From an uncultured Acidobacteriaceae bacterium (GTDB lineage Bacteria > Acidobacteriota > Terriglobia > Terriglobales > Acidobacteriaceae), in NCBI GenBank assembly GCA_963773645.1, contig CAVZBV010000002.1, positions 1,242,600-1,282,599 of the forward strand: DNA of 40,000 nucleotides, given 5' to 3'. The first letter of the stretch is position 1. Each line of letters starts with the position of its first letter. The notes beneath the pieces were generated by a model. It was given only the letters and a program-made list of their open reading frames with translations. It was not told the DNA's origin and did no database searches. Made by a program: the position numbers and the translations under genes. Positions 7,317 to 23,898 of the stretch are shown here, in pieces.

Positions 7317-7523
7317 GGGACTTCGAATTCAGAAAATTCTAGCAGAGTTCGACGGAAACACCGCCCGTGCTATCACCACCGAGCTTCTCGACGATGCGGC
7401 AGTGCGAGATGGTCTGGTCGATCACCGACGACGGCAACCACGATCACGCAACGTTTTACAAGTCGGTTGCGCCGCGTGTATGTTAATGATTCCGCAATTT
7501 TCCTTATCTTCACAAGTGGGTGA

Positions 7524-9542
7524 TTGATGTCCATGCATCGAACCGTTCTAGTAGCTTTCCTGGCGTTCACCACGTTTGCGCAGAGAGCAATGTCAGTCTC
7601 CAACGTACAAGCATCACCGCAGGCGGCGGAAGCAAAATCGGCACCGGAGCGGGTGGCTTCTGATACCCCGCGAGTAACGCCGGGCGGAGCGGCTTTCACG
7701 GTTCCCTCCGGTTGGTCGATCGTGACCGGCAAGAACCTGGTCATACTGGAGCCGCCCGAGGCCGATACGCACGTTGCCATTGTAGATTCCCAGGCAGCCG
7801 ATGCCAGTGCCGCGGTCGCGGCCGGCTGGGCGGCATACAAACCTGATGCGAAGCGACCGCTTAAGTTGGTTACGCCACGCCCTCCGCGCGAGGGCTGGGA
7901 TGAGCGGCTGGTTTACGACTACGAGACCTCTCCGAACGAGCGTGTTGTTGTACACGTGGTTGCGTTGCGGGCCGGCAGCACGTGGACCGTCTTCATGCTG
8001 GACGGAAATCAACCGACAATTGAGAAGCGCACTGCACCGATTTCGCTGATCTTCGAAAGCTTGCGGCCGAAGGGCTACCGCCGCGAATCTCTTGCCGGTC
8101 GTAAACCGCAACCCCTGGACGATGCACATATCGCTCAGCTCAAAACGTTCGTTGAAACCTCCATGCAAAAACTCGGTATCCCTGGCGCTGCCATGGCGCT
8201 CATTGATGGCGGCAAAATTGTGTATCAGGGTGGGTTTGGCGTGCGCGAACTGGGCAAGCCGGAGCCGGTGGACGAAAATACGTTGTTCATGGCGGCGTCC
8301 AACACAAAAGGAATGACGACGCTGCTCCTGGCAGAACTGGTCGACGAGAAAAAATTGAAGTGGGATGAACCGGTGGCCGAGGCCTACCCGAGCTTCAAAC
8401 TTGGCGATGCGGAAACTACGAAAAAGGTGCTCGTCAAGAACCTGATTTGCGCGTGCACCGGAATGCCGCGACAGGATCTGGAATGGATGTTCGAGTTCAA
8501 GAATGCAACTCCGGAATCCACTCTCGCTTTGCTCGGGACCATGCAACCGACCAGCAAGTTTGGCGAGGTCTTTCAGTACAGCAATCTGATGGCGGCTGCT
8601 GCGGGATACATTGGCGGCCATCTGGTGTATCCGAAAATGGAGCTCGGGGCGGCCTACGACAAAGCGATGCAGCAACGGATTTTCGATCCGCTGGAGATGA
8701 AATCGACGACCTTCGATTTTGCGCGCGCCCTCGCGGGCAACCATGCCAGCCCGCACGGGGACGATGTGGATGGCAAGCCCGCCGTGGCCAACATGGCCCT
8801 CGATTACTCGATCGTGCCGGCCCGTCCTGCTGGCGGCGTGTGGACCTCGGCCGGCGATCTGATCCGTTACGTGCAACTGGAGCTTGCGCAGGGGAAGCTG
8901 CCCAATGGCAAGCAACTGGTTTCGGCAGAGAATCTGCTGGCGCGCCGTGCGCCGCAGATTGCCGTCGGCGAGGACGAGACTTATGGAATGGGCTTGAGAG
9001 TAGACCGCAAATACGGAATTCCGGTTGTCAGTCACGGCGGCGGCATCGCAGGCTTCAAGAGTGACTTTTTCTTTCTGCCAGACTTCGGCATTGGCGCCGT
9101 ACTGCTCACCAATTCGGAAAATGGGGGCCTACTTGTGAATGCGTTCGGGCGTCGCTTGCTGGAAGTCGTCTTCGACGGCAAACTTGAGGCAGCCAGCGAA
9201 CTCTCGACCCAGGCGGCACGCCATAAATCGGCCCTTGCCCAAGACCGGAAACGACTCGTGGTGCCTGCTGCCCCGGCGCTGGTGGCTGGTTTGGCAAAGC
9301 GGTATTCCAGCAAGGAGCTCGGCGAGCTAGCCGTGCTGAACCATGACGGAGTGACCACGTTCGATTTCGGCGTGTGGAAAAGCGCGGTGGCATCGCGGAC
9401 GAATGACGACGGCACGACCTCGTTCATCACGATCGATCCCGCCCATAGCGGGTTCGAATTCGTGGTGGCTGACCGCGCCGGCAAGCGGGCGCTGATTATA
9501 CGCGATGGCCAGCACGAGTACATCTTTACAGAGGTTGCCTGA
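7524..9542 (+). CDS. beta-lactamase-fold serine hydrolase (class C / family VIII esterase-like) with extra N- and C-terminal domains
   Basis: Signal peptide (HRTVLVAFLAFTTFAQRAMS). S-x-x-K motif ASNTKGM, Y-x-N motif QYSNLM, HGG triad region SHGGGIAGF. 672 aa. Confidence 0.85.
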   Translation: MMSMHRTVLVAFLAFTTFAQRAMSVSNVQASPQAAEAKSAPERVASDTPRVTPGGAAFTVPSGWSIVTGKNLVILEPPEADTHVAIVDSQAADASAAVAAGWAAYKPDAKRPLKLVTPRPPREGWDERLVYDYETSPNERVVVHVVALRAGSTWTVFMLDGNQPTIEKRTAPISLIFESLRPKGYRRESLAGRKPQPLDDAHIAQLKTFVETSMQKLGIPGAAMALIDGGKIVYQGGFGVRELGKPEPVDENTLFMAASNTKGMTTLLLAELVDEKKLKWDEPVAEAYPSFKLGDAETTKKVLVKNLICACTGMPRQDLEWMFEFKNATPESTLALLGTMQPTSKFGEVFQYSNLMAAAAGYIGGHLVYPKMELGAAYDKAMQQRIFDPLEMKSTTFDFARALAGNHASPHGDDVDGKPAVANMALDYSIVPARPAGGVWTSAGDLIRYVQLELAQGKLPNGKQLVSAENLLARRAPQIAVGEDETYGMGLRVDRKYGIPVVSHGGGIAGFKSDFFFLPDFGIGAVLLTNSENGGLLVNAFGRRLLEVVFDGKLEAASELSTQAARHKSALAQDRKRLVVPAAPALVAGLAKRYSSKELGELAVLNHDGVTTFDFGVWKSAVASRTNDDGTTSFITIDPAHSGFEFVVADRAGKRALIIRDGQHEYIFTEVA

Positions 9543-9606
9543 CCGCGCCGGGCAATTCCTCGTATCTCTTGTTCGCGACTCGCGTTTCGCCACGCTCGGA
9601 CCAGGC

Positions 9607-9620
9607 CATCCTTCGTTGAC
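9607..9620 (+). repeat. direct repeat copy 1 of CATCCTTCGTTGAC (putative target-site duplication)
   Basis: Identical 14-mer at 9607, 21542 and 35964, all in the same orientation and each abutting a TIR end. One extra upstream C is shared, so 15 bp is possible. Confidence 0.8.
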
Positions 9621-9718
9621 GGGTTTGTGTATGGCGACGGCAAAAGTGCTACACCCCCCACACGGGAACTTTGGACCCTGGGGCCGGGGCCCGCGCGCTG
9701 GCGAGTGGGGCGGGCGGG
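9621..9718 (+). repeat. left terminal inverted repeat of element A (98 bp)
   Basis: GGGTTTGTGTATGGCGACGGCAAAAGTGCTACACCCCCCACACGGGAACTTTGGACCCTGGGGCCGGGGCCCGCGCGCTGGCGAGTGGGGCGGGCGGG is the exact reverse complement of 21444-21541 (compared by eye, base by base). Confidence 0.85.
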
Positions 9719-9822
9719 GAGCCTTCTATTTGCCATTTAGATGCCAACTGAAAGGACTTGTCGCCTTGCCTTTTGACACATGGCAGCGCCAAGCAGCATG
9801 ATACCGTAATCTGCAAGACTAC

Positions 9823-11790
9823 ATGGATAACAACGAGCAGAGCACGACCCAAACTCTGACTGTCACGGAAATCCTCAAAGGTTCCGACTACTCCCTGACC
9901 ATCTTCACCGACCAAGAAGTCAAAGCGATCAAGCTTTTCGACAGGGGTGGGAAGCCCTATCTCACTTGCGCCGCGAGCGACAAGGCCCGGCCTGCCAAGC
10001 CGGAGGAGATCGTCCGTCAGCTGTACTTGCGCAAGCTGATGAGCATTTATGGGTATCCGAAAGACCGGATCGCCATAGAAAAGCCCGTATATTTTGGCTC
10101 CGCTGTACACGAGAAGGCAGCCGACATCGTGGTTTGGGAAAAGGATGCGCCCACCACGCCCTACATCATCGTCGAAGTCAAGAAACCAAAGCGCAAGGAC
10201 GGCCTGGAACAACTGAAGAGCTATTGCAATGCCGAAGGCTCACCAATTGGCGTGTGGACGAACGGCAGCGAGACAATCGCTCTCCACCGCGAAGAACCTA
10301 ATATTTTTCGCAATCTGCCGGACATTCCAACGGCAACGCAGCACCTTGCGGAGATGCTTGCCGAGCGATGGACGCTTGAGGACCTAGAGAAACACAACAA
10401 GCTAGTCACCGAGCGCCGGACGCTTAAGAGCGTCATTCTCGACATGGAGAACCTGGTTCTCGCCAACGCCGGTGTCGATGCTTTCGACGAGGTATTCAAG
10501 CTCGTTTATGCAAAGCTCTTCGACGAGTGGCAGGCGGCACGCGGCGGCAAGACGAAACGCTATCTCGAATTTCGCATCGGCGGCTCAACGGCTCGGGAGT
10601 TTTCGGAGAAGGTGGATACGCTTTTCAAGAGAGCTATGGAGCAATGGCCCGGAGTGTTCCCGGAAGGCGAGCGTGTTGACCTTGAACCGGACCATTTGAA
10701 GGTGTGTGGTTCGTTTCTCGAAGACATCAAGTTGTTCAACTCGAATTTGCAGGTGATTGACGAGGCTTTCGAATACCTCTCCATTAAGGCGGCGAAGGGC
10801 GAGAAAGGTCAATATTTCACGCCACGGCACGTCATCGATATGTGCGTGAAGATGCTCAATCCCGCCATCGACGACTACGTGGTCGATACTGCTGCTGGTT
10901 CTTGCGGCTTCACGGTGCACAGCATATTCCACGTGTGGGGCGATGTCTTCACGGCAAAGGGTCCCGAGAAGTGGCAATCCGACTACGCCTCCAGCCACGT
11001 CTACGGCCTCGACTTCGACCCCCGCTCCGTAAAGATTGCGCGTGCCCTCAACCTGATAGCAGGTGACGGAAGAACCAATGTCTATCGTGCGAACACGCTG
11101 GACCCACGGATGTGGAGTGAAGAAGTCCGCGTCGGATTGAAGCCTCGCCTCCGCCGCTTCCCGAAGGATGCGGAACGCGATGGCTGGAACCGCGAGCATT
11201 ACCGGTATTTCGACTTCGACGTGCTGCTTACAAATCCACCCTTCGCGGGCGACATCAAGGACAGCCGTATCATTCACCAGTACGACATTGCGAAGAACGG
11301 AAGAGGAAGATGGGAAGGCCGCATCGGGCGAGATATTCTTTTCATCGAACGCAACCTTGAATTTCTCAAACCAGGCGGACGCGCTGCCATCGTTCTACCG
11401 CAAGGCCGTTTCAACAATTCCGGTGACGAGGCTATCCGGCGCTGGATTGCCGAACGGGCGCGCATTCTCGCCGTGGTCGGACTTCAACAAAACACCTTCA
11501 AGCCGCATACAGGTACGAAAACCAGCGTGCTCTTCTTGCAGACGTGGAACGACGATAAGAACTCCTCAACCTACAACCCAAGGCTAGAGAACTACCCAGT
11601 GTTTCTCGCCACAAGCCTTAATTCCGGCAAGGACAACTCGGGTGAGTATCAATACCGGCTTGGCCCTGATAATGCCCCTCTGCTCGATGAGCACGGACAT
11701 ATGGTTGTGAACCACGACCTCGACGAGATTGCGGAAGGATTCTTGAAATGGGCGCGAAAACAGAAGATGCAGTTCGCTGAGGGTTCTTAA
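9823..11790 (+). CDS. hsdM: type I-like restriction-modification N6-adenine DNA methyltransferase (HsdM) with an N-terminal HsdR_N/restriction-endonuclease-like domain
   Basis: Motif I VVDTAAGSCGF, motif IV LLTNPPFAG, and QYFTPRHVIDMCVKML typical of N6_Mtase. The N-terminal ~170 aa include DIVVWEKD...YIIVEVKKPK (PD-(D/E)xK-like, as in the HsdR N-terminal domain). The stop TAA abuts the hsdS ATG (11788-11793). Confidence 0.85.
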   Translation: MDNNEQSTTQTLTVTEILKGSDYSLTIFTDQEVKAIKLFDRGGKPYLTCAASDKARPAKPEEIVRQLYLRKLMSIYGYPKDRIAIEKPVYFGSAVHEKAADIVVWEKDAPTTPYIIVEVKKPKRKDGLEQLKSYCNAEGSPIGVWTNGSETIALHREEPNIFRNLPDIPTATQHLAEMLAERWTLEDLEKHNKLVTERRTLKSVILDMENLVLANAGVDAFDEVFKLVYAKLFDEWQAARGGKTKRYLEFRIGGSTAREFSEKVDTLFKRAMEQWPGVFPEGERVDLEPDHLKVCGSFLEDIKLFNSNLQVIDEAFEYLSIKAAKGEKGQYFTPRHVIDMCVKMLNPAIDDYVVDTAAGSCGFTVHSIFHVWGDVFTAKGPEKWQSDYASSHVYGLDFDPRSVKIARALNLIAGDGRTNVYRANTLDPRMWSEEVRVGLKPRLRRFPKDAERDGWNREHYRYFDFDVLLTNPPFAGDIKDSRIIHQYDIAKNGRGRWEGRIGRDILFIERNLEFLKPGGRAAIVLPQGRFNNSGDEAIRRWIAERARILAVVGLQQNTFKPHTGTKTSVLFLQTWNDDKNSSTYNPRLENYPVFLATSLNSGKDNSGEYQYRLGPDNAPLLDEHGHMVVNHDLDEIAEGFLKWARKQKMQFAEGS

Positions 11791-12901
11791 ATGGCCGTGT
11801 GGAGTAGCGTCGAAGTTGACAGTTTATCTAAGGATTTCAGGCTCGATGCCGAGCACTACCAGCCTGAATACTTGGCGCAAGAGCGAGCGACCAACAAGCG
11901 GAGGAGCGTGGAACTCCAAACTATCGCGTTTGTGTCTGATGGAAACCACCTGAGCATAGCTGAGGAGTTTTCAGAATCCGGCGTTCGATATCTTCGCGGC
12001 CAAGACCTTTCCGACTTCTTCGTCTCTGATGCCGATCCGATCTATATTCCCGAGAAGATTTACCGGACCCTGCCCCGCTCTCACATGCTCGCAGGGGATG
12101 TCCTTGTTGGCATTGTGGGCACCATAGGCAGCGTTGGACTGGTCACGAAGCGCCACGGAAATCTCACAGGTAACTGTAAACTTGCAATCATCCGCGCTCG
12201 GTCTCTCCCAGCCGAGTACATAGCCGCGTATTTGACCTCGCGCATCGGGCAGAACGAGATTCAACGCCGTATACGTGGTGCGGTTCAAATGGGTCTTATC
12301 CTTCCCGACCTGAAGGCACTGCCCATCGTTGTGCCGACCGACAAAGAACGTGAGACTATCGTCAGCCTCGTGAGGGGTGCTGAGGTCAGTCGTGAGCGCT
12401 CCCGTAAGCTGGTAGCAGAAGCAGAAAGTTTACTCCTAGATTCCATCGGGCTGTCCGATGTCAGTTTTTCAAAGAACTTCCTCTACGAGCGTCAGTTCAG
12501 CGAGCTTTCTGCTGCAAGCCGAATGGACGCTGAGTACTTCTCGCCGCGCTATCAAACGGCGCTGGCGATCCTCGGACAACAGGGGCGCACCATTGGCGAT
12601 GTCGCGAACCTCGCGCAGCGGCGTTTTCAGTCCGAGGCTCTCAAGGGTTGCGGTACCTTCCAATACATTGAAATCGGTTCCTTGCAGGGAGATGGTCTAG
12701 CAGATGCCGAAACGATAAGTGTTTCCGAAGCGCCTAGCCGCGCCCAATGGATTGTGGAGCCAAATGACATTATTACGTCAACCGTCCGACCTATTCGACG
12801 GCTCTCCGCGATGATCTCTGCCCAGCAAGCTGGTTACGTGTGTTCATCAGGTTTTGCCGTGCTGGAACCCAAGTTGGGATCGAGTGGCATTGAACCGGAA
12901 T
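11791..12901 (+). pseudogene. hsdS: restriction-modification specificity subunit (HsdS), 3'-truncated by an IS3-family insertion
   Basis: Two target-recognition-domain-like halves (DAEHYQPEY... and MDAEYFSPRY...). The second half breaks off at ...GFAVLEPKLGSSGIEPEL. From 12902 the ORF reads into IS sequence (SGCTPA*, a string also seen in spurious ORFs of the other IS copies). Confidence 0.8.
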
Positions 12902-13639
12902 TGTCCGGATGCACTCCCGCTTGAGCGACTTATGCCAGCGTTCGATCTTCCCGTTCGACTGCGGGTAAAACGGCGAAGTGCGCACGTGCGTCATCCCCGA
13001 GATGCGAATGAACTCCTTGAAGTCGCGCGCGATGAACTGCGGTCCGTTGTCGGAGATTATCCGCGGCCTGGCTTCCGGGTACTTTTCCTTGGCTCGTTCC
13101 AGAATCATCTCAATGTCGGCTTCCTTCATCGACTCCCGCAAATCCCAATGCACCAGAAAACGACTGTATCCATCCAGCACACTGCATAAGTAATAGAACG
13201 TGCCCGACAGGTTGATATAGGAAACATCGACGTGCCAGTGCTGGTGCGGCTGCAGCGGCTGTTCGAAGCCGGTCCCCTTGCGCGACGGCTTCGGTTTCCA
13301 GCGCGAGAGGAGTCCCGCTTGTTTCAACACTCGCCATACGCTCGCCGGACTCACGGCCACCACATCGTGATCTAACATCATGAACGTAAGTCGCCGATAA
13401 CCTTCCAATGGATTCTTCAGGTGGAAGCCGATGATGGCTTCCTTCTCCCACGGCTCCAGCCAAAAATCTCGGGGCACCCAACCGTTGTGCTCATTCGCCC
13501 GACCATAGCGCTGCCGCCAGTTGTAGAACTTACTCGCAGTGACGCCCAGCCAATGAATGAATCGGCCGGCGCTGATCTCGGTCTTCTGCGACCAGCGCCG
13601 GACGAAATCCACCACCTGATCCCGCACATCGTGCGGCAC
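12902..13639 (-). pseudogene. IS3-family transposase OrfB, C-terminally truncated
   Basis: Identical to the 343-aa OrfB up to ...KSLKRECIRT, then reads into antisense hsdS sequence. It retains all three DDE residues but lacks the C-terminal ~100 aa. Confidence 0.85.
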
Positions 13640-13650
13640 CCAGGTCTCGG

Positions 13651-13965
13651 TCAGAGTTCCCCAAGGCTTTTTTTTAACGCGATGTGCTCCGCCATCAGCT
13701 CGGCCAGGACCTCGTCCTTGGTCTGCACCTTCTTCTCCAAGAACTCAATCCGCTTCTGCTTCTCCTCCGCCTGACGGCGAGGACGTTCCGGTGTTTGGAA
13801 GGCGGCCGCTCCGTTCTCGAAAAACTCTTTCTGCCAGCGGTAGAAAACCGTGGGTTGTAGCCCCAGTTCTTCACACAGATCGGAAACCGGGACCTTGTCC
13901 AAAAGATGGCGCCGTAGAACCGCCACTTTTTCCTCAGCAGTGTAGTGCTTGCGCTCTTTTTTCAT
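13651..13965 (-). CDS. IS3-family transposase OrfA (HTH)
   Basis: 104 aa, identical to the OrfA of the other two copies. HTH_Tnp_1-like, with leucine-zipper-like C-terminus. Confidence 0.9.
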   Translation of the reverse strand: MKKERKHYTAEEKVAVLRRHLLDKVPVSDLCEELGLQPTVFYRWQKEFFENGAAAFQTPERPRRQAEEKQKRIEFLEKKVQTKDEVLAELMAEHIALKKSLGEL

Positions 13966-14327
13966 ACGTTCGCTCCGCTATCTTAACGGACGAACGCTTT
14001 CTCCATTTCCAACTGAGGCGGGACAATAATGACATCCTGCCAGTGCGGACCATGTACAACGAGGTCACGCAGAATATCGGGAACAACTATCTCACGTCTG
14101 AGACGCCGATTTGGGTCGCTGGTCCCGATCTGATTGCGTCCGTAATCCGAACCGGCAAAGTGCCGCACATCATCCGGGCTATCCGCATGGTGCCGCACGG
14201 CAAGCAAGCTGGAATGCGAAGTGTAAACCTACGTGGCATGGTTGAAATTGATCCGTATGGGGATGATTTATTTTGCAAAACTATCGAACAGCGAAAACTG
14301 CACAAATCGGACTACGCCCTTTATTAC

Positions 14328-15626
14328 GGGAATTCCGACTTTGTAGTGGGTGACGATCTCGGGATGCGACAATCTGGGGATGCAAGATCGTGAACTGTAC
14401 CGACAGATTCTAGGGATTGAAGCGCCCTGGTTTGTAGAGCGAGTGGAACTAAAGCTGACCGAGGGCGAAGTACACATCTATCTGGAGCACGGAGAGATGG
14501 CGAGTTGGCCGTGCCCAGAATGCGAAGCGAGTTGCCAGTTGTATGACCATCAAGGGGAGCGGCAGTGGCGGCATCTGGACACCTGCCAATATCAGACGAT
14601 TCTGCATGCCCGGCCACCGCGCACCGAGTGCGCCGAGCATGGCGTACGGGTTCTGAAGTTGCGGTGGGCGGAGCCCTCGAGCCGATTCACCGCACTGATG
14701 GAACGGCTGGTGATTGACTGGCTGAGAGCGGCGAGTCAGAAAGCAGTGGGCGAACAGTTGGGACTGAGCTGGGACGAAATTCACGGGATCATGGAGCGGG
14801 CGGTGGCGCGGGGCTTGGAACGGAGGCAGGCCGAGCCTTTGCCACAGCTGGGAGTCGACGAGAAGGCGTTTCGGAAAGGGCACAAGTATTTCACGCTGGT
14901 GAATGACCTGGAGCGGTCCCGTGTGCTGTACGTGGCCGAAGATCGCACTCAGGCCAGCTTAGATGGATTCTGGCAGACCCTGACGGAAGGGCAGCGCGAG
15001 AGTATCGAGGCCATCGCCATGGACATGTGGGATCCCTACGTAGCTTCGGTTCGCGAGCATCTGCGGGAAGGGAGCCAAAAGATCGTCTACGACAAATTTC
15101 ATATCGCCAAACATCTGGGCGATGCCGTGGACAAAGTACGGCGCCAGGAAAACCGCACGCTGCGAGCGGCCGGCGATGACCGACTGACGGGAACACGCTA
15201 CGACTGGTTGCGGAATCCGACCGCCATGGAACCGGCCGATCGCAAAGCCTTTGCCGCGTTACGTCAGAGTGGGCTGAAGACGGCACGGGCTTGGGCTCTG
15301 AAAGAAACCGCCATGGCATTTTTCAGTTACCAATACGAGCGACCCGCGCGGAAACATTTTCGCTGGTGGCACGGCTGGGCCGTACGCAGTCGGCTGCGCC
15401 CCATGCTGGAGGTAGCCAGGACTTTGAAGCGACGCTTCGAGAACATCCTTACCTATCTCCGCCACCGCGTCACCAACGCTGCCAGCGAATCCATCAACGC
15501 CAAGATCCAGTGGGTCAAGTACACCGCACGCGGCTTCCGCAATAAGAAGAACTTCGCAGCTGCAATCCTCTTCCACTGCGGCGGTCTGGACCTGGCTCCT
15601 TAAGCCACTAAAATGCCGGAAGAGCC
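14328..15626 (+). mobile_element. ISL3-family insertion sequence with 8-bp target duplication
   Basis: Imperfect IRs GGGAATTCCGACTTTGTAGTGGG (14328-) and the reverse complement of the right end, GGCTCTTCCGGCATTTTAGTGGC (ends 15626). Flanked by TTTATTAC at 14320-14327 and 15627-15634. Confidence 0.85.
14380..15603 (+). CDS. ISL3-family transposase
   Basis: MQDRELYRQILGIEAPWFVERVEL... N-terminus, Zn-finger CPECEASC, and DDE_Tnp_ISL3-like body (GVDEKAFRKGHKYFTLV...AMDMWDPY...TNAASESINAKIQ). A GTG at 14350 is an alternative start. Confidence 0.88.
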   Translation: MQDRELYRQILGIEAPWFVERVELKLTEGEVHIYLEHGEMASWPCPECEASCQLYDHQGERQWRHLDTCQYQTILHARPPRTECAEHGVRVLKLRWAEPSSRFTALMERLVIDWLRAASQKAVGEQLGLSWDEIHGIMERAVARGLERRQAEPLPQLGVDEKAFRKGHKYFTLVNDLERSRVLYVAEDRTQASLDGFWQTLTEGQRESIEAIAMDMWDPYVASVREHLREGSQKIVYDKFHIAKHLGDAVDKVRRQENRTLRAAGDDRLTGTRYDWLRNPTAMEPADRKAFAALRQSGLKTARAWALKETAMAFFSYQYERPARKHFRWWHGWAVRSRLRPMLEVARTLKRRFENILTYLRHRVTNAASESINAKIQWVKYTARGFRNKKNFAAAILFHCGGLDLAP

Positions 15627-16176
15627 TTTATTACTGGCTTAAGATTTTTGCAAACTCCATTTATGGTTTTTTTGTTGAATTAAATCCAGAACGGAAAAAG
15701 AACAACGTACCTGTCAAGGTTTTTTCAGGAGACAAGAACTTCCCCGATGATTCGGACGTGATTGAAAATCCTGGACCGTGGTTTTTTCCACCTTTGGCCT
15801 CGCTCATCACATCTGGCGGACGCCTATTGCTCGCCATGACGGAAGCGTGTGTGGAAGCCAAGAAGGGCACGTATCTATTTTGTGACACAGATTCACTTGC
15901 AATCGTGGCCTCCAAGAAAGGTGGGTTGCTGCGCATTCCGGGCAGCAAAGGAATCCGGATTCTCTCGTGGGCTGAAGCGAAGAAAATCGCTGACAAATTC
16001 GCTGCGCTGAATCCTTACAACCGCAAGATCGTGAAAGGTTCAATTCTGAATCTTGTGGACGCGAACTATGTTGACTCGGACTCCAAGAACCCGCAGCGCC
16101 AGTTGTACGGGTACAGTGTCCCGCCTCAGTTGGAAATGGAGAAAGCGTTCGTCCGTTAAGATAGCGGAGCGAACGT

Positions 16177-16491
16177 ATGAAAAAAGAGCGCAAGCACTAC
16201 ACTGCTGAGGAAAAAGTGGCGGTTCTACGGCGCCATCTTTTGGACAAGGTCCCGGTTTCCGATCTGTGTGAAGAACTGGGGCTACAACCCACGGTTTTCT
16301 ACCGCTGGCAGAAAGAGTTTTTCGAGAACGGAGCGGCCGCCTTCCAAACACCGGAACGTCCTCGCCGTCAGGCGGAGGAGAAGCAGAAGCGGATTGAGTT
16401 CTTGGAGAAGAAGGTGCAGACCAAGGACGAGGTCCTGGCCGAGCTGATGGCGGAGCACATCGCGTTAAAAAAAAGCCTTGGGGAACTCTGA
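16177..16491 (+). CDS. IS3-family transposase OrfA
   Basis: 104-aa HTH protein, identical in all three copies. Confidence 0.9.
   Translation: MKKERKHYTAEEKVAVLRRHLLDKVPVSDLCEELGLQPTVFYRWQKEFFENGAAAFQTPERPRRQAEEKQKRIEFLEKKVQTKDEVLAELMAEHIALKKSLGEL
16468..16475 (+). other. A7G slippery site for programmed -1 ribosomal frameshift (OrfA to OrfAB)
   Basis: TTAAAAAAAAG near the end of orfA. orfB (frame -1 relative to orfA) is open across it. This is the canonical IS3-family arrangement. The equivalent sites are 20313-20320 (- strand) and in the truncated copy. Confidence 0.75.
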
Positions 16492-16502
16492 CCGAGACCT
16501 GG

Positions 16503-17534
16503 GTGCCGCACGATGTGCGGGATCAGGTGGTGGATTTCGTCCGGCGCTGGTCGCAGAAGACCGAGATCAGCGCCGGCCGATTCATTCATTGGCTGGGCGT
16601 CACTGCGAGTAAGTTCTACAACTGGCGGCAGCGCTATGGTCGGGCGAATGAGCACAACGGTTGGGTGCCCCGAGATTTTTGGCTGGAGCCGTGGGAGAAG
16701 GAAGCCATCATCGGCTTCCACCTGAAGAATCCATTGGAAGGTTATCGGCGACTTACGTTCATGATGTTAGATCACGATGTGGTGGCCGTGAGTCCGGCGA
16801 GCGTATGGCGAGTGTTGAAACAAGCGGGACTCCTCTCGCGCTGGAAACCGAAGCCGTCGCGCAAGGGGACCGGCTTCGAACAGCCGCTGCAGCCGCACCA
16901 GCACTGGCACGTCGATGTTTCCTATATCAACCTGTCGGGCACGTTCTATTACTTATGCAGTGTGCTGGATGGATACAGTCGTTTTCTGGTGCATTGGGAT
17001 TTGCGGGAGTCGATGAAGGAAGCCGACATTGAGATGATTCTGGAACGAGCCAAGGAAAAGTACCCGGAAGCCAGGCCGCGGATAATCTCCGACAACGGAC
17101 CGCAGTTCATCGCGCGCGACTTCAAGGAGTTCATTCGCATCTCGGGGATGACGCACGTGCGCACTTCGCCGTTTTACCCGCAGTCGAACGGGAAGATCGA
17201 ACGCTGGCATAAGTCGCTCAAGCGGGAGTGCATCCGGACACTGACTCCGTTAACGCTGGACGATGCACGCCGCTTGATTCAACTCTACGTGGATCACTAC
17301 AACACGATGCGCCTACACAGTGCGATCGGCTATGTGACGCCGCAGGATCGGCTCGCCGGACGACAGGCCGAGATCCACGCGGCTCGCGATCGCAAGTTAG
17401 AAGAAGCTCGTCGCCAGCGGCAACTCCGACGGCAGCAGACGGCGTCTTGGAGGTTTGCACCCTCTTCCACGCCAGCTACAATGACCTCGCCGGGTGAAAC
17501 GGAAGCGGGCTCTGCCGGGAGGCAACCATGCTGA
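16503..17534 (+). CDS. IS3-family transposase OrfB (rve/DDE integrase domain)
   Basis: DDE triad contexts HWHVDVSY, IISDNGPQF, PQSNGKIERWHKSLKRE. 343 aa from the first in-frame start. Probably expressed as an OrfAB fusion. Confidence 0.9.
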   Translation: MPHDVRDQVVDFVRRWSQKTEISAGRFIHWLGVTASKFYNWRQRYGRANEHNGWVPRDFWLEPWEKEAIIGFHLKNPLEGYRRLTFMMLDHDVVAVSPASVWRVLKQAGLLSRWKPKPSRKGTGFEQPLQPHQHWHVDVSYINLSGTFYYLCSVLDGYSRFLVHWDLRESMKEADIEMILERAKEKYPEARPRIISDNGPQFIARDFKEFIRISGMTHVRTSPFYPQSNGKIERWHKSLKRECIRTLTPLTLDDARRLIQLYVDHYNTMRLHSAIGYVTPQDRLAGRQAEIHAARDRKLEEARRQRQLRRQQTASWRFAPSSTPATMTSPGETEAGSAGRQPC

Positions 17535-17850
17535 GGGATAACCTGGTGGGGCTCATCGAGCCGATGCTCAGCAGCGCGGGAGTTGATCCTCTCGCGCTCT
17601 GCATGCGAGGAAAAAGCCATCGGACGATAGACCCCCATGCCTTGAAAATCCCCGCCCCGAAGGGGCGGAATCTACACTAACGGAGAACGCCGCTTCTCCA
17701 TTTCACGCTGAGCCAAGACAAGACTTCTACACTATCAATCCGACGGAGCGCACGAGGTAGACGTGTGTGAACAGTCCCCGCGCCGCTTCGAGAGCCTTGA
17801 GAATGAGTTGCGGTCTGCACGCCAAACAGACCTCAAAGGAGGACACGGAG

Positions 17851-18036
17851 ATGAAAGGCATAGTGCGCTGCCCTTATTGCATATTAGGCGTTGAGTTCCG
17901 ACCGATGGTTGCCCATGTGGACGGCAGATACATATGCAACAAATGCGGCCATACGACACACCCAAGGGATGCGAAATATGAGTGTCACTGCCCCAAATGT
18001 GCAAACCTTAGATCTCGTGCTTTTGTTGCAAGTTGA
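17851..18036 (+). CDS. small zinc-ribbon protein, unknown function
   Basis: 61 aa from the ATG preceded by AAGGAGG (8-nt spacing). Three CxxC pairs (CPYC, CNKC, CPKC). Confidence 0.5.
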   Translation: MKGIVRCPYCILGVEFRPMVAHVDGRYICNKCGHTTHPRDAKYECHCPKCANLRSRAFVAS

Positions 18037-18631
18037 GTTGGTTTCAGTACTTCTCCCCGCCCGGAACCGGCAGTGTGCAAGCAACGAGGCAGGACTTTTT
18101 CCGGCTATTGCAGCTTCGCATACTCGGCCCTGGCTTCCTTCAGGATTGGGATGTCGGGGTCTGCGTCTTTCCAGAGGGTGAGGAAATCTTCATAGGCAGC
18201 GGGTTTTGGCGGTGTCGCCGGAGATAACCTAGAACAGAGTTGGTCCGTGTTCTACGCCATCACTCCCAAGAAGAACGCGTGAGGACTGAGTCCGAGCACT
18301 GCACCAAAAGCGGTCATTGACACTGGCCCCCCTGGAGCTTAGCCTCGATATGTCTCCATTGGCCACAGCCAAAACTTCTGTCGCCTTCTCTTATAAAGCG
18401 GCCCCTAAAGCGGCTCCGAAGCGGCCTGACCCACGAGGACATTCGGGCAGTTGAAATTCATAAGATCGCACGCCCGTCTCCGATGACGGTGTAGGCCCGA
18501 ATACATGGTGGTCAAGCAGCTGGTCGCAAGACCGACTCCACCCCAGTGACCCGCCACCGCAGCCGGTCAGCTTCGACCGGCAGCCTCGAATTGTCGCCTG
18601 TCGAGAAACAAGCGCAAAAGGAGTGTTCCCA

Positions 18632-18955
18632 ATGTTTACAAGAATTGTTGAAGTAACCACCAAATCAGGAAAGGCAAAAGAGCTCTCGAACGTCATCAAC
18701 GACAAGGTACTACCGATTCTGAAAAAACAGGTCGGATTCGTGGATGAGACCGTCATGGCATCAGATACCGACCCCGATCGTGTTTTGGCACTGAGCTTTT
18801 GGAACACGAGAGAAGATGCCGAACGGTATAACCGCGAGCAATATCCCGCCGTCCACGAGATGATACGGCACCTGCTGGAGACAGAGCCCGCAATTCGGAC
18901 CTTCAATGTCGATAGCTCAACCACGCACAAGATCGCAGCTAGCAAAGCGGCCTGA
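18632..18955 (+). CDS. ABM/Dabb-like (antibiotic biosynthesis monooxygenase fold) small protein
   Basis: MFTRIVEVTTKSGKAKE...ALSFWNTREDAERY is typical of ferredoxin-like ABM domains. AAAGGAG lies 8 nt upstream of the ATG at 18632. Confidence 0.6.
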   Translation: MFTRIVEVTTKSGKAKELSNVINDKVLPILKKQVGFVDETVMASDTDPDRVLALSFWNTREDAERYNREQYPAVHEMIRHLLETEPAIRTFNVDSSTTHKIAASKAA

Positions 18956-18978
18956 AAACAACCTGATTGCGCACAAAA

Positions 18979-19003
18979 GGGCGAGCCCAAACGTGGCTCG
19001 CCC
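18979..19003 (+). terminator. stem-loop after the ABM gene (possible terminator)
   Basis: GGGCGAGCC-CAAACGT-GGCTCGCCC forms a perfect 9-bp stem 24 nt after the stop. There is no clear U-tract. Confidence 0.4.
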
Positions 19004-19253
19004 GACCTTGCGCTCTTTAAGACTGAAGAACGTAGAAATGCTCCGTGCCGCGCACGAGAGCTGGAACTGTCTTGGCTCAGCGTGAAATGGAGAAGCGGCG
19101 TTCTCCGTTAGTGTAGATTCCGCCCCTTCGGGGCGGGGATTTTCAAGGCATGGGGGTCTATCGTCCGATGGCTTTTTCCTCGCATGCAGAGCGCGAGAGG
19201 ATCAACTCCCGCGCTGCTGAGCATCGGCTCGATGAGCCCCACCAGGTTATCCC

Positions 19254-20285
19254 TCAGCATGGTTGCCTCCCGGCAGAGCCCGCTTCCGTTTCACCCGGCG
19301 AGGTCATTGTAGCTGGCGTGGAAGAGGGTGCAAACCTCCAAGACGCCGTCTGCTGCCGTCGGAGTTGCCGCTGGCGACGAGCTTCTTCTAACTTGCGATC
19401 GCGAGCCGCGTGGATCTCGGCCTGTCGTCCGGCGAGCCGATCCTGCGGCGTCACATAGCCGATCGCACTGTGTAGGCGCATCGTGTTGTAGTGATCCACG
19501 TAGAGTTGAATCAAGCGGCGTGCATCGTCCAGCGTTAACGGAGTCAGTGTCCGGATGCACTCCCGCTTGAGCGACTTATGCCAGCGTTCGATCTTCCCGT
19601 TCGACTGCGGGTAAAACGGCGAAGTGCGCACGTGCGTCATCCCCGAGATGCGAATGAACTCCTTGAAGTCGCGCGCGATGAACTGCGGTCCGTTGTCGGA
19701 GATTATCCGCGGCCTGGCTTCCGGGTACTTTTCCTTGGCTCGTTCCAGAATCATCTCAATGTCGGCTTCCTTCATCGACTCCCGCAAATCCCAATGCACC
19801 AGAAAACGACTGTATCCATCCAGCACACTGCATAAGTAATAGAACGTGCCCGACAGGTTGATATAGGAAACATCGACGTGCCAGTGCTGGTGCGGCTGCA
19901 GCGGCTGTTCGAAGCCGGTCCCCTTGCGCGACGGCTTCGGTTTCCAGCGCGAGAGGAGTCCCGCTTGTTTCAACACTCGCCATACGCTCGCCGGACTCAC
20001 GGCCACCACATCGTGATCTAACATCATGAACGTAAGTCGCCGATAACCTTCCAATGGATTCTTCAGGTGGAAGCCGATGATGGCTTCCTTCTCCCACGGC
20101 TCCAGCCAAAAATCTCGGGGCACCCAACCGTTGTGCTCATTCGCCCGACCATAGCGCTGCCGCCAGTTGTAGAACTTACTCGCAGTGACGCCCAGCCAAT
20201 GAATGAATCGGCCGGCGCTGATCTCGGTCTTCTGCGACCAGCGCCGGACGAAATCCACCACCTGATCCCGCACATCGTGCGGCAC
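19254..20285 (-). CDS. IS3-family transposase OrfB
   Basis: Identical 343-aa DDE product. Confidence 0.9.
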   Translation of the reverse strand: MPHDVRDQVVDFVRRWSQKTEISAGRFIHWLGVTASKFYNWRQRYGRANEHNGWVPRDFWLEPWEKEAIIGFHLKNPLEGYRRLTFMMLDHDVVAVSPASVWRVLKQAGLLSRWKPKPSRKGTGFEQPLQPHQHWHVDVSYINLSGTFYYLCSVLDGYSRFLVHWDLRESMKEADIEMILERAKEKYPEARPRIISDNGPQFIARDFKEFIRISGMTHVRTSPFYPQSNGKIERWHKSLKRECIRTLTPLTLDDARRLIQLYVDHYNTMRLHSAIGYVTPQDRLAGRQAEIHAARDRKLEEARRQRQLRRQQTASWRFAPSSTPATMTSPGETEAGSAGRQPC

Positions 20286-20296
20286 CCAGGTCTCGG

Positions 20297-20611
20297 TCAG
20301 AGTTCCCCAAGGCTTTTTTTTAACGCGATGTGCTCCGCCATCAGCTCGGCCAGGACCTCGTCCTTGGTCTGCACCTTCTTCTCCAAGAACTCAATCCGCT
20401 TCTGCTTCTCCTCCGCCTGACGGCGAGGACGTTCCGGTGTTTGGAAGGCGGCCGCTCCGTTCTCGAAAAACTCTTTCTGCCAGCGGTAGAAAACCGTGGG
20501 TTGTAGCCCCAGTTCTTCACACAGATCGGAAACCGGGACCTTGTCCAAAAGATGGCGCCGTAGAACCGCCACTTTTTCCTCAGCAGTGTAGTGCTTGCGC
20601 TCTTTTTTCAT
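20297..20611 (-). CDS. IS3-family transposase OrfA
   Basis: Identical 104-aa product. Confidence 0.9.
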   Translation of the reverse strand: MKKERKHYTAEEKVAVLRRHLLDKVPVSDLCEELGLQPTVFYRWQKEFFENGAAAFQTPERPRRQAEEKQKRIEFLEKKVQTKDEVLAELMAEHIALKKSLGEL

Positions 20612-20963
20612 ACGTTCGCTCCGCTATCTTAACGGACGAACGCTTTCTCCATTTCCAACTGAGGCGGGACAGTCTGTGTTGAGTAGCTTTTTACCCTGGT
20701 CTCTCAGAGCATGTAAATAGCCCGATTGTGTCAACGGAGAGCACAATTTGGGTATGACTCCAACTCGGCTTTAGCCGCCCGATGCGAGGCCACAGGTTTT
20801 ACCACCTATTTCCACAGACCTGCCGCGATCCACAGCTTGACAATCTACTGCTCTCTGTTACAGTAGCCGCGACTCCCTGCCAATCCGGGACCGCCCGTCC
20901 CGCTCAAAGCCCCTCGTTGACAGCTCGTCTTGGGCTTACGTCAATTCCCGAGGAGCTTGCTTT

Positions 20964-21230
20964 ATGCCCCGTCGTATGTTTTCTACCGTTCCTTTTCCCA
21001 GTGGTGCATCCTCCCGCTCGATATGGGAGAAACTATATGAGCGTGCGATTCTGGAACTTGATTACGCAAAAGTGCCCGAGCGGATTGCTGAAGCTCGTCA
21101 GTCTATGCATGACAGGGCTGAAGAAATACTCACCGAGTCGTCGAGTAACGAACGAGGCGCTCTCAATAAGGCGCTGCGGAACTTAGGCTTACTTGAGGAA
21201 ATGACAGCGAGAGAAAAATCCATAGAATAG
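20964..21230 (+). CDS. small hypothetical protein
   Basis: 88 aa with GAGGAG 8 nt upstream. Helical sequence (EKLYERAILELDYAKVPERIAEARQSM...). No recognised motif. Confidence 0.45.
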   Translation: MPRRMFSTVPFPSGASSRSIWEKLYERAILELDYAKVPERIAEARQSMHDRAEEILTESSSNERGALNKALRNLGLLEEMTAREKSIE

Positions 21231-21443
21231 AACATCCCCTCTAACACCCCTTAAACCCGCGCGGCGACCTGCTCCGTACCTGCGATGGTTCCCACCACCG
21301 CATCAACTTGTCAACTGCGATCTCACTGCGATCTCACAAGATCGCGAACGGTGGGCGGCCAGCCTGGCGCTACCCACTCGCTATTGGCCCCCGCACACAT
21401 CACCACGCCTGCCCCACTCGCGCGCCCGGTCCACTCCGCGCAT

Positions 21444-21541
21444 CCCGCCCGCCCCACTCGCCAGCGCGCGGGCCCCGGCCCCAGGGTCCAAAGTTCCCGT
21501 GTGGGGGGTGTAGCACTTTTGCCGTCGCCATACACAAACCC
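21444..21541 (-). repeat. right terminal inverted repeat of element A (98 bp)
   Basis: Exact reverse complement of 9621-9718. Confidence 0.85.
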
Positions 21542-21555
21542 CATCCTTCGTTGAC
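21542..21555 (+). repeat. direct repeat copy 2 of CATCCTTCGTTGAC (shared junction between elements A and B)
   Basis: Sits exactly between the right TIR of A (ends 21541) and the left TIR of B (starts 21556). Confidence 0.8.
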
Positions 21556-21645
21556 GGGTAGGATGTGGCGACGGGAAAAACGGCTACACCCCCTCCCCGG
21601 AACTTGGACCCCAGAGGCCGGGGCCCGCGCGCGAGCGAGTGGGGC
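21556..21645 (+). repeat. left terminal inverted repeat of element B (90 bp)
   Basis: GGGTAGGATGTGGCGACGGGAAAAACGGCTACACCCCCTCCCCGGAACTTGGACCCCAGAGGCCGGGGCCCGCGCGCGAGCGAGTGGGGC is the exact reverse complement of 35874-35963. Confidence 0.85.
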
Positions 21646-21710
21646 AGGCGAACTGGGCCGGATGTACGAGCGATGGGCGAGTGGGTGAGCGTGGGTGCGA
21701 CGCGGCTTCT

Positions 21711-21902
21711 CTACCGGGAACGTTTGGCGGGCTTCCTCTTGAGAATGTCCTTGGCTGCTAGCCTTGCCAGACCGAGGATAATGCCGGAATTGCTGAGAAT
21801 GGCATCTGGCCACAGAGCATTAGCCGCCCTTTGGAGCGTGGAGAAATCCTCTGTATTCATCTTGACGTTTACTTGGACTGTACGTTTTCCGCCGGTTTCC
21901 AT
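21711..21902 (-). CDS. small protein, possibly ribbon-helix-helix DNA-binding
   Basis: 63 aa. KRTVQVNVKMNTEDFSTLQRAANAL fits a beta-strand plus helix RHH start. Located just inside the left TIR. Weak call. Confidence 0.35.
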   Translation of the reverse strand: METGGKRTVQVNVKMNTEDFSTLQRAANALWPDAILSNSGIILGLARLAAKDILKRKPAKRSR

Positions 21903-22012
21903 TTCCTCACTATCGTTACGTTCGTACCCTTTTGTAGCAACGATACTGTTGGTACCTTTCGTACCATGGACCGACAGCTATTCGGCACGGGGCCATTCGC
22001 AGGGAGTGCATT

Positions 22013-23176: not shown

Positions 23177-23339
23177 GAACAGGAACACCCAGAATTAGAA
23201 GTGCGGGCTGAAGGTCCTCCGGTAGCGAAATTGCCGAGACGCCAGCAACTTACTAAGGACTGTTGGGGCAAAAGTACCAGATTCTTTTACACGGAAGGCA
23301 ACGTAACCAACAGGAACTCTTGAACCAAAAGGGGGATTT

Positions 23340-23780
23340 ATGAAACGCTTCACAGCACAGCTGGTCCTGGTAGTTGCGGTGACGCTTTCCGCGTCGATGG
23401 CAAACGCAGCGATGACAGGTGCCAGTCTTGAAAAACTTTGTACTAGTTGGACTGTAGACGCAAGCCTAGCCGCGTCGGTTGGCCCCGGCAAGACTTACGA
23501 AAACCTGGATGGGTTTAGAAATGCCACTTGGTGCCAAGCATACATCGGAGGTTACGGGGCCGGTATCAAAGGCGCGATGGGAACCGACGACAAGGGCATC
23601 ATGGGCACCTACACTATTGAACAGGGAGTTACTCCGCCGCAAGTTGTCAAAGTATTCAAACAGTACATTGCGAACCATCCAGAAGAAGAGAACAAACCCG
23701 CTGGCGATGTGTTATACCACGCCATGACCAGCTCCGGGCTACTCACCCTGGTAGTGGAAGAGAAATCAGGCAATCAATGA
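23340..23780 (+). CDS. small secreted protein, unknown function (faint resemblance to Rap1a/Tai4-type immunity proteins)
   Basis: Signal peptide MKRFTAQLVLVVAVTLSASMANA. The pattern TGASLEKLC...WCQAYIGGYG recalls the C...C-x-Y-I-x-G pattern of Rap1a-like domains, from memory only. Confidence 0.6.
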   Translation: MKRFTAQLVLVVAVTLSASMANAAMTGASLEKLCTSWTVDASLAASVGPGKTYENLDGFRNATWCQAYIGGYGAGIKGAMGTDDKGIMGTYTIEQGVTPPQVVKVFKQYIANHPEEENKPAGDVLYHAMTSSGLLTLVVEEKSGNQ

Positions 23781-23898
23781 AAACCTTTAAGACTTTTTCA
23801 AAACACAGATAGCGGCAGCGTAGGATTCGGAGACTCCGAGTGTCGACGATATAGCAGAAATCGTAATCTCGGCGATTATCTTCGACACCTGCCCGACC

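Follow-up and report, generated by a model that had tools for sequence, protein, structure and literature searches.

A casposon relic with perfect ends and four insertion sequences beside an intact casposon in a soil acidobacterium

The CRISPR adaptation machinery is proposed to descend from casposons, and what is known of these elements comes, to our knowledge, almost wholly from a few archaeal examples. A soil acidobacterium is the host of an array of two such elements, called A and B, within a window of 40,000 nucleotides (the whole stretch of DNA that was analysed). Element B is intact. Element A contains insertion sequences (ISs) and little that recalls a casposon, and the question is what it once was, how it came to its present state and if it can still move. 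The original prediction described A as a decayed sibling casposon.

A and B stand head-to-tail at one 14-bp target. The target-site duplication (TSD), CATCCTTCGTTGAC, is present in three identical copies bracketing A and B, the middle one common to both. This internal copy implies two separate integrations, one for A and one for B. The target is intergenic, with a beta-lactamase-family gene on one side and a Ser/Thr kinase gene on the other; the genes around it, among them PAS histidine kinases and a PD40 Ser/Thr kinase, are of bacterial type. As predicted, A lies within perfect 98-bp TIRs, with ends that are homologous across the family described below. The TIRs of A and B are of different, related types, about 76–82% identical. 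The features are as follows.

9607–9620: TSD copy 1, CATCCTTCGTTGAC, matching 21542–21555 and 35964–35977; single copy in two empty-site contigs (L097, L098)
9621–9718, plus strand: left TIR of A, 98 nt, 100% complementary to 21444–21541
9823–11790, plus strand: type I R-M methyltransferase, hsdM-like, 655 aa (Pfam HSDR_N_2 and N6_Mtase; PADLOC MTase_I, 2.9e-234, full length)
11791–12901, plus strand: type I specificity subunit, hsdS-like, with its 3' end lost to deletion; the ORF continues as far as the truncated IS3 at 12902
12902–14025, minus strand: IS3 copy 1, truncated, with nt 1–1124 of 1604 present (HTH_Tnp_1 and rve); IRL at 14025
14026–14327, plus strand: first part (a) of the polB relic, corresponding to B PolB residues ~436–543 (tblastn 57%, E 2e-29; 97% nt identity to the polB of locus L015)
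14328–15626, plus strand: ISL3-family IS (Pfam DDE_Tnp_ISL3, 6.8e-69; HTH_Tnp_ISL3, Zn_ribbon_ISL3)
15635–16116, plus strand: second part (b) of the polB relic, corresponding to B PolB residues ~544–697 (tblastn 63%, E 1e-49; 98% nt identity to L015)
16117–17720, plus strand: IS3 copy 2, full length, 1604 nt (orfA and orfB; ends TGTC...GACA)
17721–19067: segment M, between inverted IS3 copies; ABM-domain ORF at 18623–18955, plus strand (Pfam ABM, 2.3e-08)
19068–20671, minus strand: IS3 copy 3, full length (orfA and orfB; same evidence as copy 2)
20672–21443: segment R, right-arm remnant, with ORFs at 20782–21186 and 20964–21230
21444–21541, minus strand: right TIR of A, 98 nt
21542–21555: TSD copy 2, common to A and B
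21556–35963, plus strand: element B, intact casposon, with 90-nt perfect TIRs at 21556–21645 and 35874–35963
26339–27874, minus strand: Cas1-Zn-HTH of B (Pfam Cas_Cas1, 2.9e-40)
29875–32982, plus strand: PolB of B (weak Pfam DNA_pol_B_2 match)
35964–35977: TSD copy 3, right of B, CATCCTTCGTTGAC

When all B proteins were compared with A by tblastn, the sole matches were to PolB residues 436–543 (14025–14327) and 540–694 (15623–16090). The middle of polB is therefore the only casposon gene relic in A, as the prediction had it, and the translation of part b carries both motif B (KIFANSIYGFF) and motif C (FCDTDSLAI). Joining 14026–14327 to 15635–16116 gives 261 codons with no stop and no frameshift, and with 261 of ~1000 codons left the gene cannot be functional. 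No similarity to Cas1 was found in A, either by tblastn with B proteins or in a Pfam scan, which bears out the claimed absence of cas1; the intact relative L015 and the neighbour B both have this integrase. Because Cas1 is absent, A is a relic or non-autonomous derivative, and not a complete casposon. Tblastn, tblastx and low-stringency blastn against B recovered neither the missing polB ends nor a remnant of cas1 from the rest of A, whatever the orientation. In these searches of A's other segments, the sole further similarity between A and B was in the sequence adjoining the TIR: segment M has no similarity to B, and the ORFs of segment R have no Pfam matches and no similarity to B except beside the TIR. 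The hsdS-like ORF is matched by Pfam Methylase_S over profile positions 7–92 of 168 only, and its PADLOC Specificity_I and mad5 matches end at about position 300 of 392–398.

The homology of the relic to casposon PolB is unambiguous. L015, from another Acidobacteriaceae MAG, is an intact A-type casposon that encodes a 507-aa Cas1 and a PolB of nearly full length, the centre of which is 97–98% identical to the A relic in nucleotides and 98% in amino acids. Its TIR is 89% identical to that of A, versus 83% to that of B. The PolBs of A and B are 57–63% identical, i.e. closer than the "about half" estimated earlier, and A and B are distinct casposon lineages, as was also proposed. Two other loci (L009, L010) were considered as closest intact homologues and rejected, being decayed relics beside valS. 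More widely, the GTDB species representatives contain 211 PolB relatives, almost all of which are from Acidobacteriota (Terriglobia MAGs), and in ~66 of 79 fetched loci a full PolB is found with a full Cas1 2–4 kb upstream. The nearest relatives of the fragment are these Cas1-linked PolBs and not a non-casposon polymerase. Members of the family have homologous termini (GGG(G)T...CGACGGCAAAA...GCTACACCCC) and TSDs of 14–16 bp, mostly ending in TTGAC. Tandem arrays are seen in at least 13 other family loci, mixed-lineage arrays are frequent, and the family also includes 1.5-kb relics in which a polB fragment lies between two TIRs. This family of Terriglobia casposons runs to hundreds of members, and we found no description of it in the literature searched.

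The four predicted ISs are all present: three IS3 copies, two of them bounding the relic, and one ISL3 copy, which splits it. ISL3-family elements have a DDE_Tnp_ISL3 transposase, GGCTCTTC-type IRs and an 8-bp TSD. All of these are found in the element at 14328–15626, which has the IRs GGGAATTCCGACTTTGTAGTGG and GGCTCTTCCGGCATTTTAGTGG and, as read from the sequence, an intact TSD, TTTATTAC, at 14320–14327 and 15627–15634. Its removal restores the polB frame, and the polB of L015 has no ISL3. The hallmarks of the IS3 family are an orfA (HTH) and an orfB (rve DDE), TG...CA ends, imperfect IRs and a 3–4-bp TSD; here we find Pfam HTH_Tnp_1 and rve/rve_3, the ends TGTCCCGCCTCAG... and ...CTGAGCCAAGACA, and a 4-bp repeat, AGAC, for one reconstructed copy only. 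The three copies are 100% identical to each other: copy 1 is an inverted match of 16117–17240, with its IRL (TGTCCCGCCTCAG...) adjoining polB, and copy 2 is the inverted repeat of 19068–20671.

The decay of A is recent and IS-driven. The relic and the L015 polB differ at 18 of 780 nt, of which 13 differences are synonymous and 5 non-synonymous. That the decay is recent follows from this excess of synonymous changes, the absence of stops in 261 codons, the identity of the IS3 copies and the intact TSD of the ISL3. By its substitutions, the polB relic was also under purifying selection until recently. The original prediction was right that ISs drove the decay, but insertions alone are insufficient: a deletion junction within hsdS also cuts one IS3 short, and IS3 flanks are left unpaired, so that IS-associated deletions are required, and one inversion is likely. 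Of the flanks at the five IS3 ends, a single IRL/IRR pair has the AGAC repeat in common (the IRR of copy 2 and the IRL of copy 3), and the chance of a 4-bp match among the six possible IRL/IRR pairings is ~2%. This pairing requires an inversion between copies 2 and 3, and segment M is probably inverted relative to the ancestor by recombination between them. The remaining IS3 ends are unpaired, and copy 1 lacks the third with its IRR. The truncation of copy 1 departs from the textbook IS-end deletion. A composite transposon of IS3, segment M and IS3 that inserted as a unit was also considered and rejected, since the outer flanks (ACAG and GTCT) form no direct repeat.

It is highly probable that A is a once-autonomous Terriglobia casposon, distinct from B, which used the same 14-bp target and was recently wrecked by ISs. 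A and B would each have integrated at the CATCCTTCGTTGAC target, giving the head-to-tail array. The ISL3 would have entered polB by simple insertion, and the IS3-family element would have multiplied to three copies within A. IS3-associated deletions at 12901/12902 would then have taken away the 3' end of hsdS and the 5' ~40% of polB, together with the stretch where relatives carry cas1 and its companion genes, truncating one IS3 on the way, and further deletions would have taken the 3' third of polB. The segment between copies 2 and 3 was probably inverted when these two full-length copies, which lie in opposite orientation, recombined. What is left is a non-autonomous, TIR-bounded shell that holds the ISs, an ABM-domain gene, a type I R-M methylase and a specificity gene cut short. 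We infer in what order and by what mechanism the deletions and the inversion took place, as well as the former presence of cas1 in this copy of A. A might instead have been Cas1-less already when it integrated, mobilised in trans by a sibling casposase, with ISs arriving later and removing only parts of polB. In favour of this, the family member L021 lacks Cas1 but has a complete PolB, TIRs at 99% and a 14-bp TSD that is intact, and a Methanosarcina mazei mini-casposon moves without Cas1 or PolB (PMC10359463). In addition, Cas1 lineage is uncoupled from TIR type in the family. However, the cas1 of relatives lies 2–4 kb upstream of polB, which is exactly where A has its deletion junction, and the recent purifying selection on polB is expected of a self-reliant element, although it says nothing direct about cas1. 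On balance we consider a Cas1-less arrival unlikely, and favour the loss of cas1 by IS-associated deletion.

Only when JGI metagenomes were scanned for a DNA pattern did the empty site come to light, in two independent contigs (L097, L098) where a single TSD copy joins flanks that are 93–95% identical to those of the window. The join corresponds to window positions 9620 and 35964, i.e. exactly to the left terminus of A and the right terminus of B, and the outer TIR ends are thus the limits of presence and absence, as expected. A, then, has a TSD of casposon size (14–15 bp), site-specific integration and an empty site. Contigs with the exact flanking or terminal cargo proteins showed no presence/absence polymorphism; all were occupied, with the same flanks, and A was seen at this one site only. 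Because occupancy by A alone or by B alone was not found in the contigs examined, it is the internal TSD copy and the TIRs, and not polymorphism, that define the boundary between A and B.

These data also bear on a reading in which A and B are one 26.3-kb composite, from the left TIR of A to the right TIR of B, that moves or exists as a unit with A as hitchhiker. The empty site lacks the whole array, and assembly ERZ25039458 has a stand-alone contig (contig_87585, 26,350 bp) that matches window 9619–35964 from end to end with 99.98% identity (the array and a further 2 nt and 1 nt), next to a 192-kb contig with the array in chromosomal context. Such a contig can, however, be an assembly-graph edge. 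No alternative flank for either end was found in any contig with the exact terminal proteins, the outer ends are of different TIR types, and the internal TSD copy speaks for two integrations, so that we give a composite very little credence. As a separate explanation for the stand-alone contig, an identical array in strains whose flanks diverge up to the TIR was rejected, as there is no step at 9621; the mismatches sit in a local patch at 3.5–6 kb and in the IS block at 15–20 kb. The array itself is not an assembly artefact: the same structure recurs in independent assemblies of several samples, including short-read ones. That A is no casposon relic, being instead an unrelated genomic island or an artefact with a polB pseudogene, has only the absence of cas1 in its favour and is next to impossible given the homologous TIRs, the casposon-type TSD, the reproduced structure and the near-identity of the relic to the polB of an intact casposon.

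Comparable known elements include the family 3 casposons such as NitAL212-C1 (PMC4046053), which share the bacterial host, a Cas1 with a C-terminal zinc-binding segment and HTH, and cargo with methyltransferases and defence genes. The Cas1 of B matches the M. mazei casposase 6OPM (family 2) with an E value of 1.2e-18; in it, Cas_Cas1 (residues 55–303) is followed by a CxxC...CxxC segment (CRGCGKPVQGTSINCAEC) and a weak HTH_3 match at 468–506, i.e. the family 3 arrangement. The PolBs are of the family 2/3 type, for which the PolB_CDTDS cluster was defined (PMC7544198), with the CDTDS motif C in both A and B (YCDTDSLAI in B). PolB had no match among PDB sequences, and a structure-based classing was thus dropped. 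An HNH nuclease has been reported in all members of families 2 and 3 (PMC4046053), whereas none was detected here by Pfam at E cut-offs of 0.01 or 0.05 in the scanned ORFs of B (including the small cas1–polB ORFs) and of A, a scan that could miss a very divergent HNH. The literature searched describes no more than a handful of family 3 elements, and the Terriglobia group exceeds these by far in size.

Tandem casposons have been described from Methanosarcina sp. 2.H.T.1A.3/.6/.8/.15 (e.g. Met2HT1A3-C1/C2), MetBur-C3 and a M. psychrophilus remnant (family 2), with one copy inactivated, and were explained by re-use of one specific target in analogy to Tn7 (PMC4779613, PMC4046053). The A/B array is a further instance of this pattern, an array at one target with a dead copy. 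The Methanosarcina tandems are archaeal, with closely related copies and stop codons in polB, whereas here the host is bacterial, the lineages are distinct (57–63% in PolB), and polB has clean codons and was broken by IS3/ISL3 insertions and deletions. Tn7 at attTn7 likewise re-uses its target and forms islands of tandem elements, some inactivated, but has an unrelated transposase (TnsABCD), no polymerase and a 5-bp TSD. In M. mazei, the mini-casposon mentioned above transposes in vivo and, with casposase supplied in trans, lands in tandem at the site of the resident element (PMC10359463). Like the shell of A it is TIR-bounded and without Cas1 and PolB. It is engineered and has cognate TIRs, whereas A is a natural relic with TIRs heterologous to the resident Cas1 and no observed mobility.

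Mobilisation in trans of the still-perfect ends of A by the casposase of B is plausible from sequence comparison. In a survey of 35 elements, TIR type follows PolB and not Cas1, and the closest relative of the B Cas1 natively uses A-type ends, which suggests that Cas1 is not specific for TIR type. We found no description of such co-variation in the literature searched. Perhaps, and we put this forward tentatively, the TIRs of the family are matched to the polymerase (as replication origins), with a promiscuous, exchangeable casposase, so that the Cas1 of B could integrate or excise A or the whole array. If so, A would be a natural non-autonomous casposon and the stand-alone 26.3-kb contig would reflect either a second copy of the array or its existence in free form.

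The locus itself is ordinary; following it up exposed a large Terriglobia family, mixed-lineage tandems, a target ending in TTGAC and no detectable HNH. A single 26-kb bacterial array displays the full casposon life cycle, from site-specific integration through target re-use by another lineage to rapid IS-driven death, in which the dead copy keeps perfect ends. The co-variation of TIRs with PolB and not with Cas1 is a testable division of labour.

Casposons A and B lie head to tail in the window, and each is bounded by perfect terminal inverted repeats (TIRs). A scan of the window for repeats, together with a reading of the junctions, gave the following features.

9621-9718 and 21444-21541: TIRs of A, the decayed element, 98 nt, 100% complementary
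21556-21645 and 35874-35963: TIRs of B, the intact sibling, 90 nt, 100%
Directly before A, at the A/B junction and after B: one copy each of the 14-mer CATCCTTCGTTGAC

A-type ends are marked by GGGTTTGTGTATGGCGACGGCAAAAG and B-type ends by GGGTAGGATGTGGCGACGGGAAAAAC; the target sequence is GGACCAGGCCATCCTTCGTTGACTAGCGGAGG. The termini of A and B have in common the blocks that are conserved family-wide, namely GGGT, CGACGG-AAAA and GCTACACCCC. The three copies of the 14-mer are the mark of two integrations at one target, with the middle copy being a target site duplication (TSD) common to both elements. Across the family (the window and about 25 loci), TSDs are 14–16 bp long and mostly end in (T)TTGAC directly beside one GGG(G)T terminus, as in loci L020, L021, L033, L036, L071 and L091, and several empty-site contexts read GTTTGACCCTTCT. 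Judged from these sequences, this suggests a sequence-specific target motif common to the Terriglobia casposon family.

No unoccupied site was found among contigs with the exact flanking or terminal proteins, all of which were occupied. A scan of JGI metagenomes for the left flank joined to the TSD gave two contigs with the empty site (L097 and L098). In each, the left flank matches the window at 93% as far as 9620, and a single copy of the TSD leads directly into the right flank, which is 95% identical to the window from 35963/4 onward. These junctions place the outer limits of the insertion at the left TIR of A and the right TIR of B. The original prediction had tied the 98-bp repeats of A to the limits of presence and absence, and the breakpoints of the empty site do coincide with the outer TIR ends; the internal A/B boundary is placed from the TSD copy and the TIRs only. 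The same array structure is found in several independent assemblies, both long-read and short-read, so the structure of A is not an assembly artefact. A was not seen at another site, having the same place in every contig. One contig of 26,350 bp (ERZ25039458 contig_87585; L002, L004) corresponds to window positions 9619-35964 at 99.98% identity, which is exactly the A and B array with 2 extra nt at its left end and 1 at its right end. That assembly also has a 192-kb contig with the array in its chromosomal context, and contig_87585 could stem from an edge in the assembly graph, from a second copy located elsewhere or from a free form. To the right of the array, the 5' end of a Ser/Thr kinase gene (36031-36100) has an 81% inverted match at 7356-7425, suggesting a kinase paralogue on the other strand upstream of the array. 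A sensor kinase further upstream (1891-3429) contains five PAS-domain repeats with a spacing of about 375 nt.

Tandem casposons with a TSD common to both copies, one of them inactivated, have been described in Methanosarcina, M. burtonii and M. psychrophilus, where they are attributed to a specific target being used more than once (PMC4779613, PMC4046053). The A/B array is similar, with a TSD between the copies and one copy dead. In at least 13 other fetched loci of the Terriglobia family two termini face each other, often with different TIR types as in A and B, and these head-to-tail tandems (L016, L028, L029, L032, L039, L043, L045, L047, L061, L065, L067, L072 and L090) have TIR termini 14-15 nt apart. 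Cas1-less or truncated elements are found in about 10 of the 79 loci. Given how frequent both are, A is an ordinary, if well-preserved, example. A family member of 11.1 kb (L021:5344-16441) has kept PolB at full length (974 aa), TIRs at 99% and its 14-bp TSD intact, yet it lacks Cas1, with unrelated ORFs in the place expected for cas1; it is a candidate for a natural non-autonomous casposon. Mini-relics of about 1.5 kb, consisting of a polB fragment between two TIRs, lie next to valS in different MAGs whose neighbourhoods are syntenic (L009:9794-11303, L044:9536-11045 and L010 at ~4069-7106), and the one in L010 retains a 22-aa relic of the Cas1 C-terminus. Dead casposons seem to persist through speciation.

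What remains of the transposition genes in A is the centre of polB. In tblastn searches of all B proteins against 9000-22000, residues 436-543 of B PolB match 14025-14327 (57%) and residues 540-694 match 15623-16090 (63%). These two pieces are the only matches to any B protein, and no similarity to Cas1 was found in this region, in line with the original prediction that cas1 is gone. Excising 14328-15634 joins the pieces into 261 codons with no stop and no frameshift, encoding both KIFANSIYGFF and FCDTDSLAI, so that the central fragment with these motifs, split by an ISL3 element, is borne out. The relic has hundreds of homologues. A scan with a PolB alignment, using one genome per GTDB species, gave 211 relatives, almost all of them from Acidobacteriota/Terriglobia MAGs. 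Among the 79 loci fetched, about 66 combine a PolB of full length (~1000 aa) with a full-length Cas1 2-4 kb upstream. This linkage to Cas1 places the relic in a casposon polymerase clade and counts against the possibility, raised with the original prediction, that it is closer to a non-casposon polymerase. A PolB fragment whose label assigns it to a Nitrososphaerales archaeon MAG (P0004) is 74% identical to the relic; it reflects either a mistake in binning or, as a hint, spread of this casposon PolB across domains.

An element of the A type is present in an Acidobacteriaceae MAG (L015). It is apparently intact, with a Cas1 of 507 aa that is 55% identical to B Cas1 and a conserved 215-aa gene. 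The centre of its PolB is 97-98% identical to the A relic at the nucleotide level, with no ISL3 interruption, and its TIR is 89% identical to that of A versus 83% to that of B. This closeness to A shows that A and B are, as had been proposed, separate lineages and not a recent duplication, in agreement with the 57% and 63% between their PolBs. Motif C is CDTDS in both PolBs, which puts them in the PolB_CDTDS cluster, a cluster that includes the A. boonei casposon polymerase (PMC7544198). B Cas1 (26339-27874, minus strand) has a match in 6OPM, the structure of the M. mazei casposase, and its C-terminal part has a CxxC...CxxC segment and a weak HTH, as reported for the family 3 casposon NitAL212-C1. 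Pfam scans of ORFs of A and B detected no HNH nuclease, and the Terriglobia group is therefore termed family-3-like. The family in the GTDB species representatives (L015-L093) has PolB of the CDTDS type and Cas1 with a Zn-HTH tail, again with no HNH detected.

The decay of A can be followed in some detail. Pfam confirmed four IS insertions:

12902-14025: IS3-1, IS3-type orfA and orfB, truncated
14350-15603: ISL3 transposase
16117-17720: IS3-2, IS3-type orfA and orfB
19068-20671: IS3-3, IS3-type orfA and orfB

The three IS3 copies are 100% identical in the repeat scan, and the ISL3 element has typical inverted repeats and an intact 8-bp TSD, TTTATTAC. The relic differs from L015 polB at 18 of 780 nt, 13 of them synonymous and 5 non-synonymous, and so was under purifying selection until very recently. 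Taken together, these observations show the decay to be young and IS-driven. Insertions alone are insufficient to account for the losses, since IS3-1 lacks its last 480 nt and meets hsdS inside the gene at 12901/12902, the match of the specificity subunit to the family profiles stops after roughly three quarters of their length, and no hsdR remains in A. In relatives, cas1 lies upstream of polB, at the exact place of this junction; a single deletion there probably removed the 3' end of hsdS, cas1 together with its companion genes, and polB up to about codon 435, and would also have taken any genes downstream of hsdS, possibly including an hsdR. Both IS3 ends touching the relic are IRL. Among the three IRL and two IRR flanks, the 4-bp repeat AGAC occurs only at the IRL of IS3-3 and the IRR of IS3-2 (a chance of about 2% for such a match), the pairing expected after an inversion between the two full, oppositely oriented copies. 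The remaining ends are unpaired, which implies at least one further IS-adjacent deletion, with loss of the 3' third of polB. One strain-level contig (contig_60022; L003, L001) differs from the window in two regions and elsewhere by 0-0.05%. The first, ~15000-20000, is the block from ISL3 to IS3-3 and includes the segment between the inverted copies (17721-19067); the consensus is noisy specifically over this invertible block, which is compatible with structural heterogeneity. The second is a 2.5-kb patch at 3500-6000 in sensor-kinase and response-regulator genes. Overall, the original observation on A is confirmed, and its interpretation is supported with these refinements.

A, B and L015 all have cargo of a defence-like kind. 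In A it consists of the hsdM of a type I R-M system and a truncated hsdS, without hsdR (9823-12901). B encodes a trypsin-like protease that weakly matches RT-protease models, together with a Rap1a-like protein, a STAND/ORC-like ATPase and a large TPR protein (22013-25392 and 33072-35810), and L015 carries a SIR2 (ThsA/LmuA-like) protein (8975-12985). The TPR gene of B (912 aa; called at 845 aa in one contig) contains nine tandem 138-nt repeats at 34272-35675, 72-95% identical to the reference copy. In ERZ25039587 contig_104857 (L013/L096), from one sample, B polB shows ~36 clustered mismatches over 30048-32621 and is split into two ORFs of 689 and 200 aa, with flanking TPR and kinase genes identical to the window; a strain variant could account for this, as could recombination involving a related casposon.

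Over 35 elements (loci L015-L093 and B), similarity of right-end TIRs follows that of a 260-aa PolB window (Spearman 0.51, Mantel p ~0.0005) but not that of Cas1 (Spearman -0.08, p 0.94), in statistics without phylogenetic correction. Cas1 pairs at least 85% identical are accompanied by TIRs of only 67-81% identity. The Cas1 closest to that of B among the genome loci fetched (86%) is in L017, where PolB is A-type and so is the right-end TIR (87% identical to that of A, 76% to that of B); L081 has a Cas1 84% identical to that of B and a third type of TIR. This pattern suggests a match between TIR ends and polymerase, with the casposase module being swapped between lineages. A mini-casposon that lacks Cas1 is mobilised in trans in M. 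mazei, inserting in tandem where the resident element sits (PMC10359463), and the A. boonei casposase has been reported to integrate DNA without TIRs (PMC9939771). By analogy with the M. mazei case, and given the common terminal blocks and the uncoupling of Cas1 from TIR type, it is plausible that A could be mobilised in trans. In the literature searched, no paper describing casposons in Acidobacteria was found, which is absence of evidence only. The interest lies mainly in the family-level context and in the TIR-PolB versus Cas1 pattern, and less in A itself. Should the TIRs act as origins matched to PolB, the machinery of B might integrate A without replicating it.
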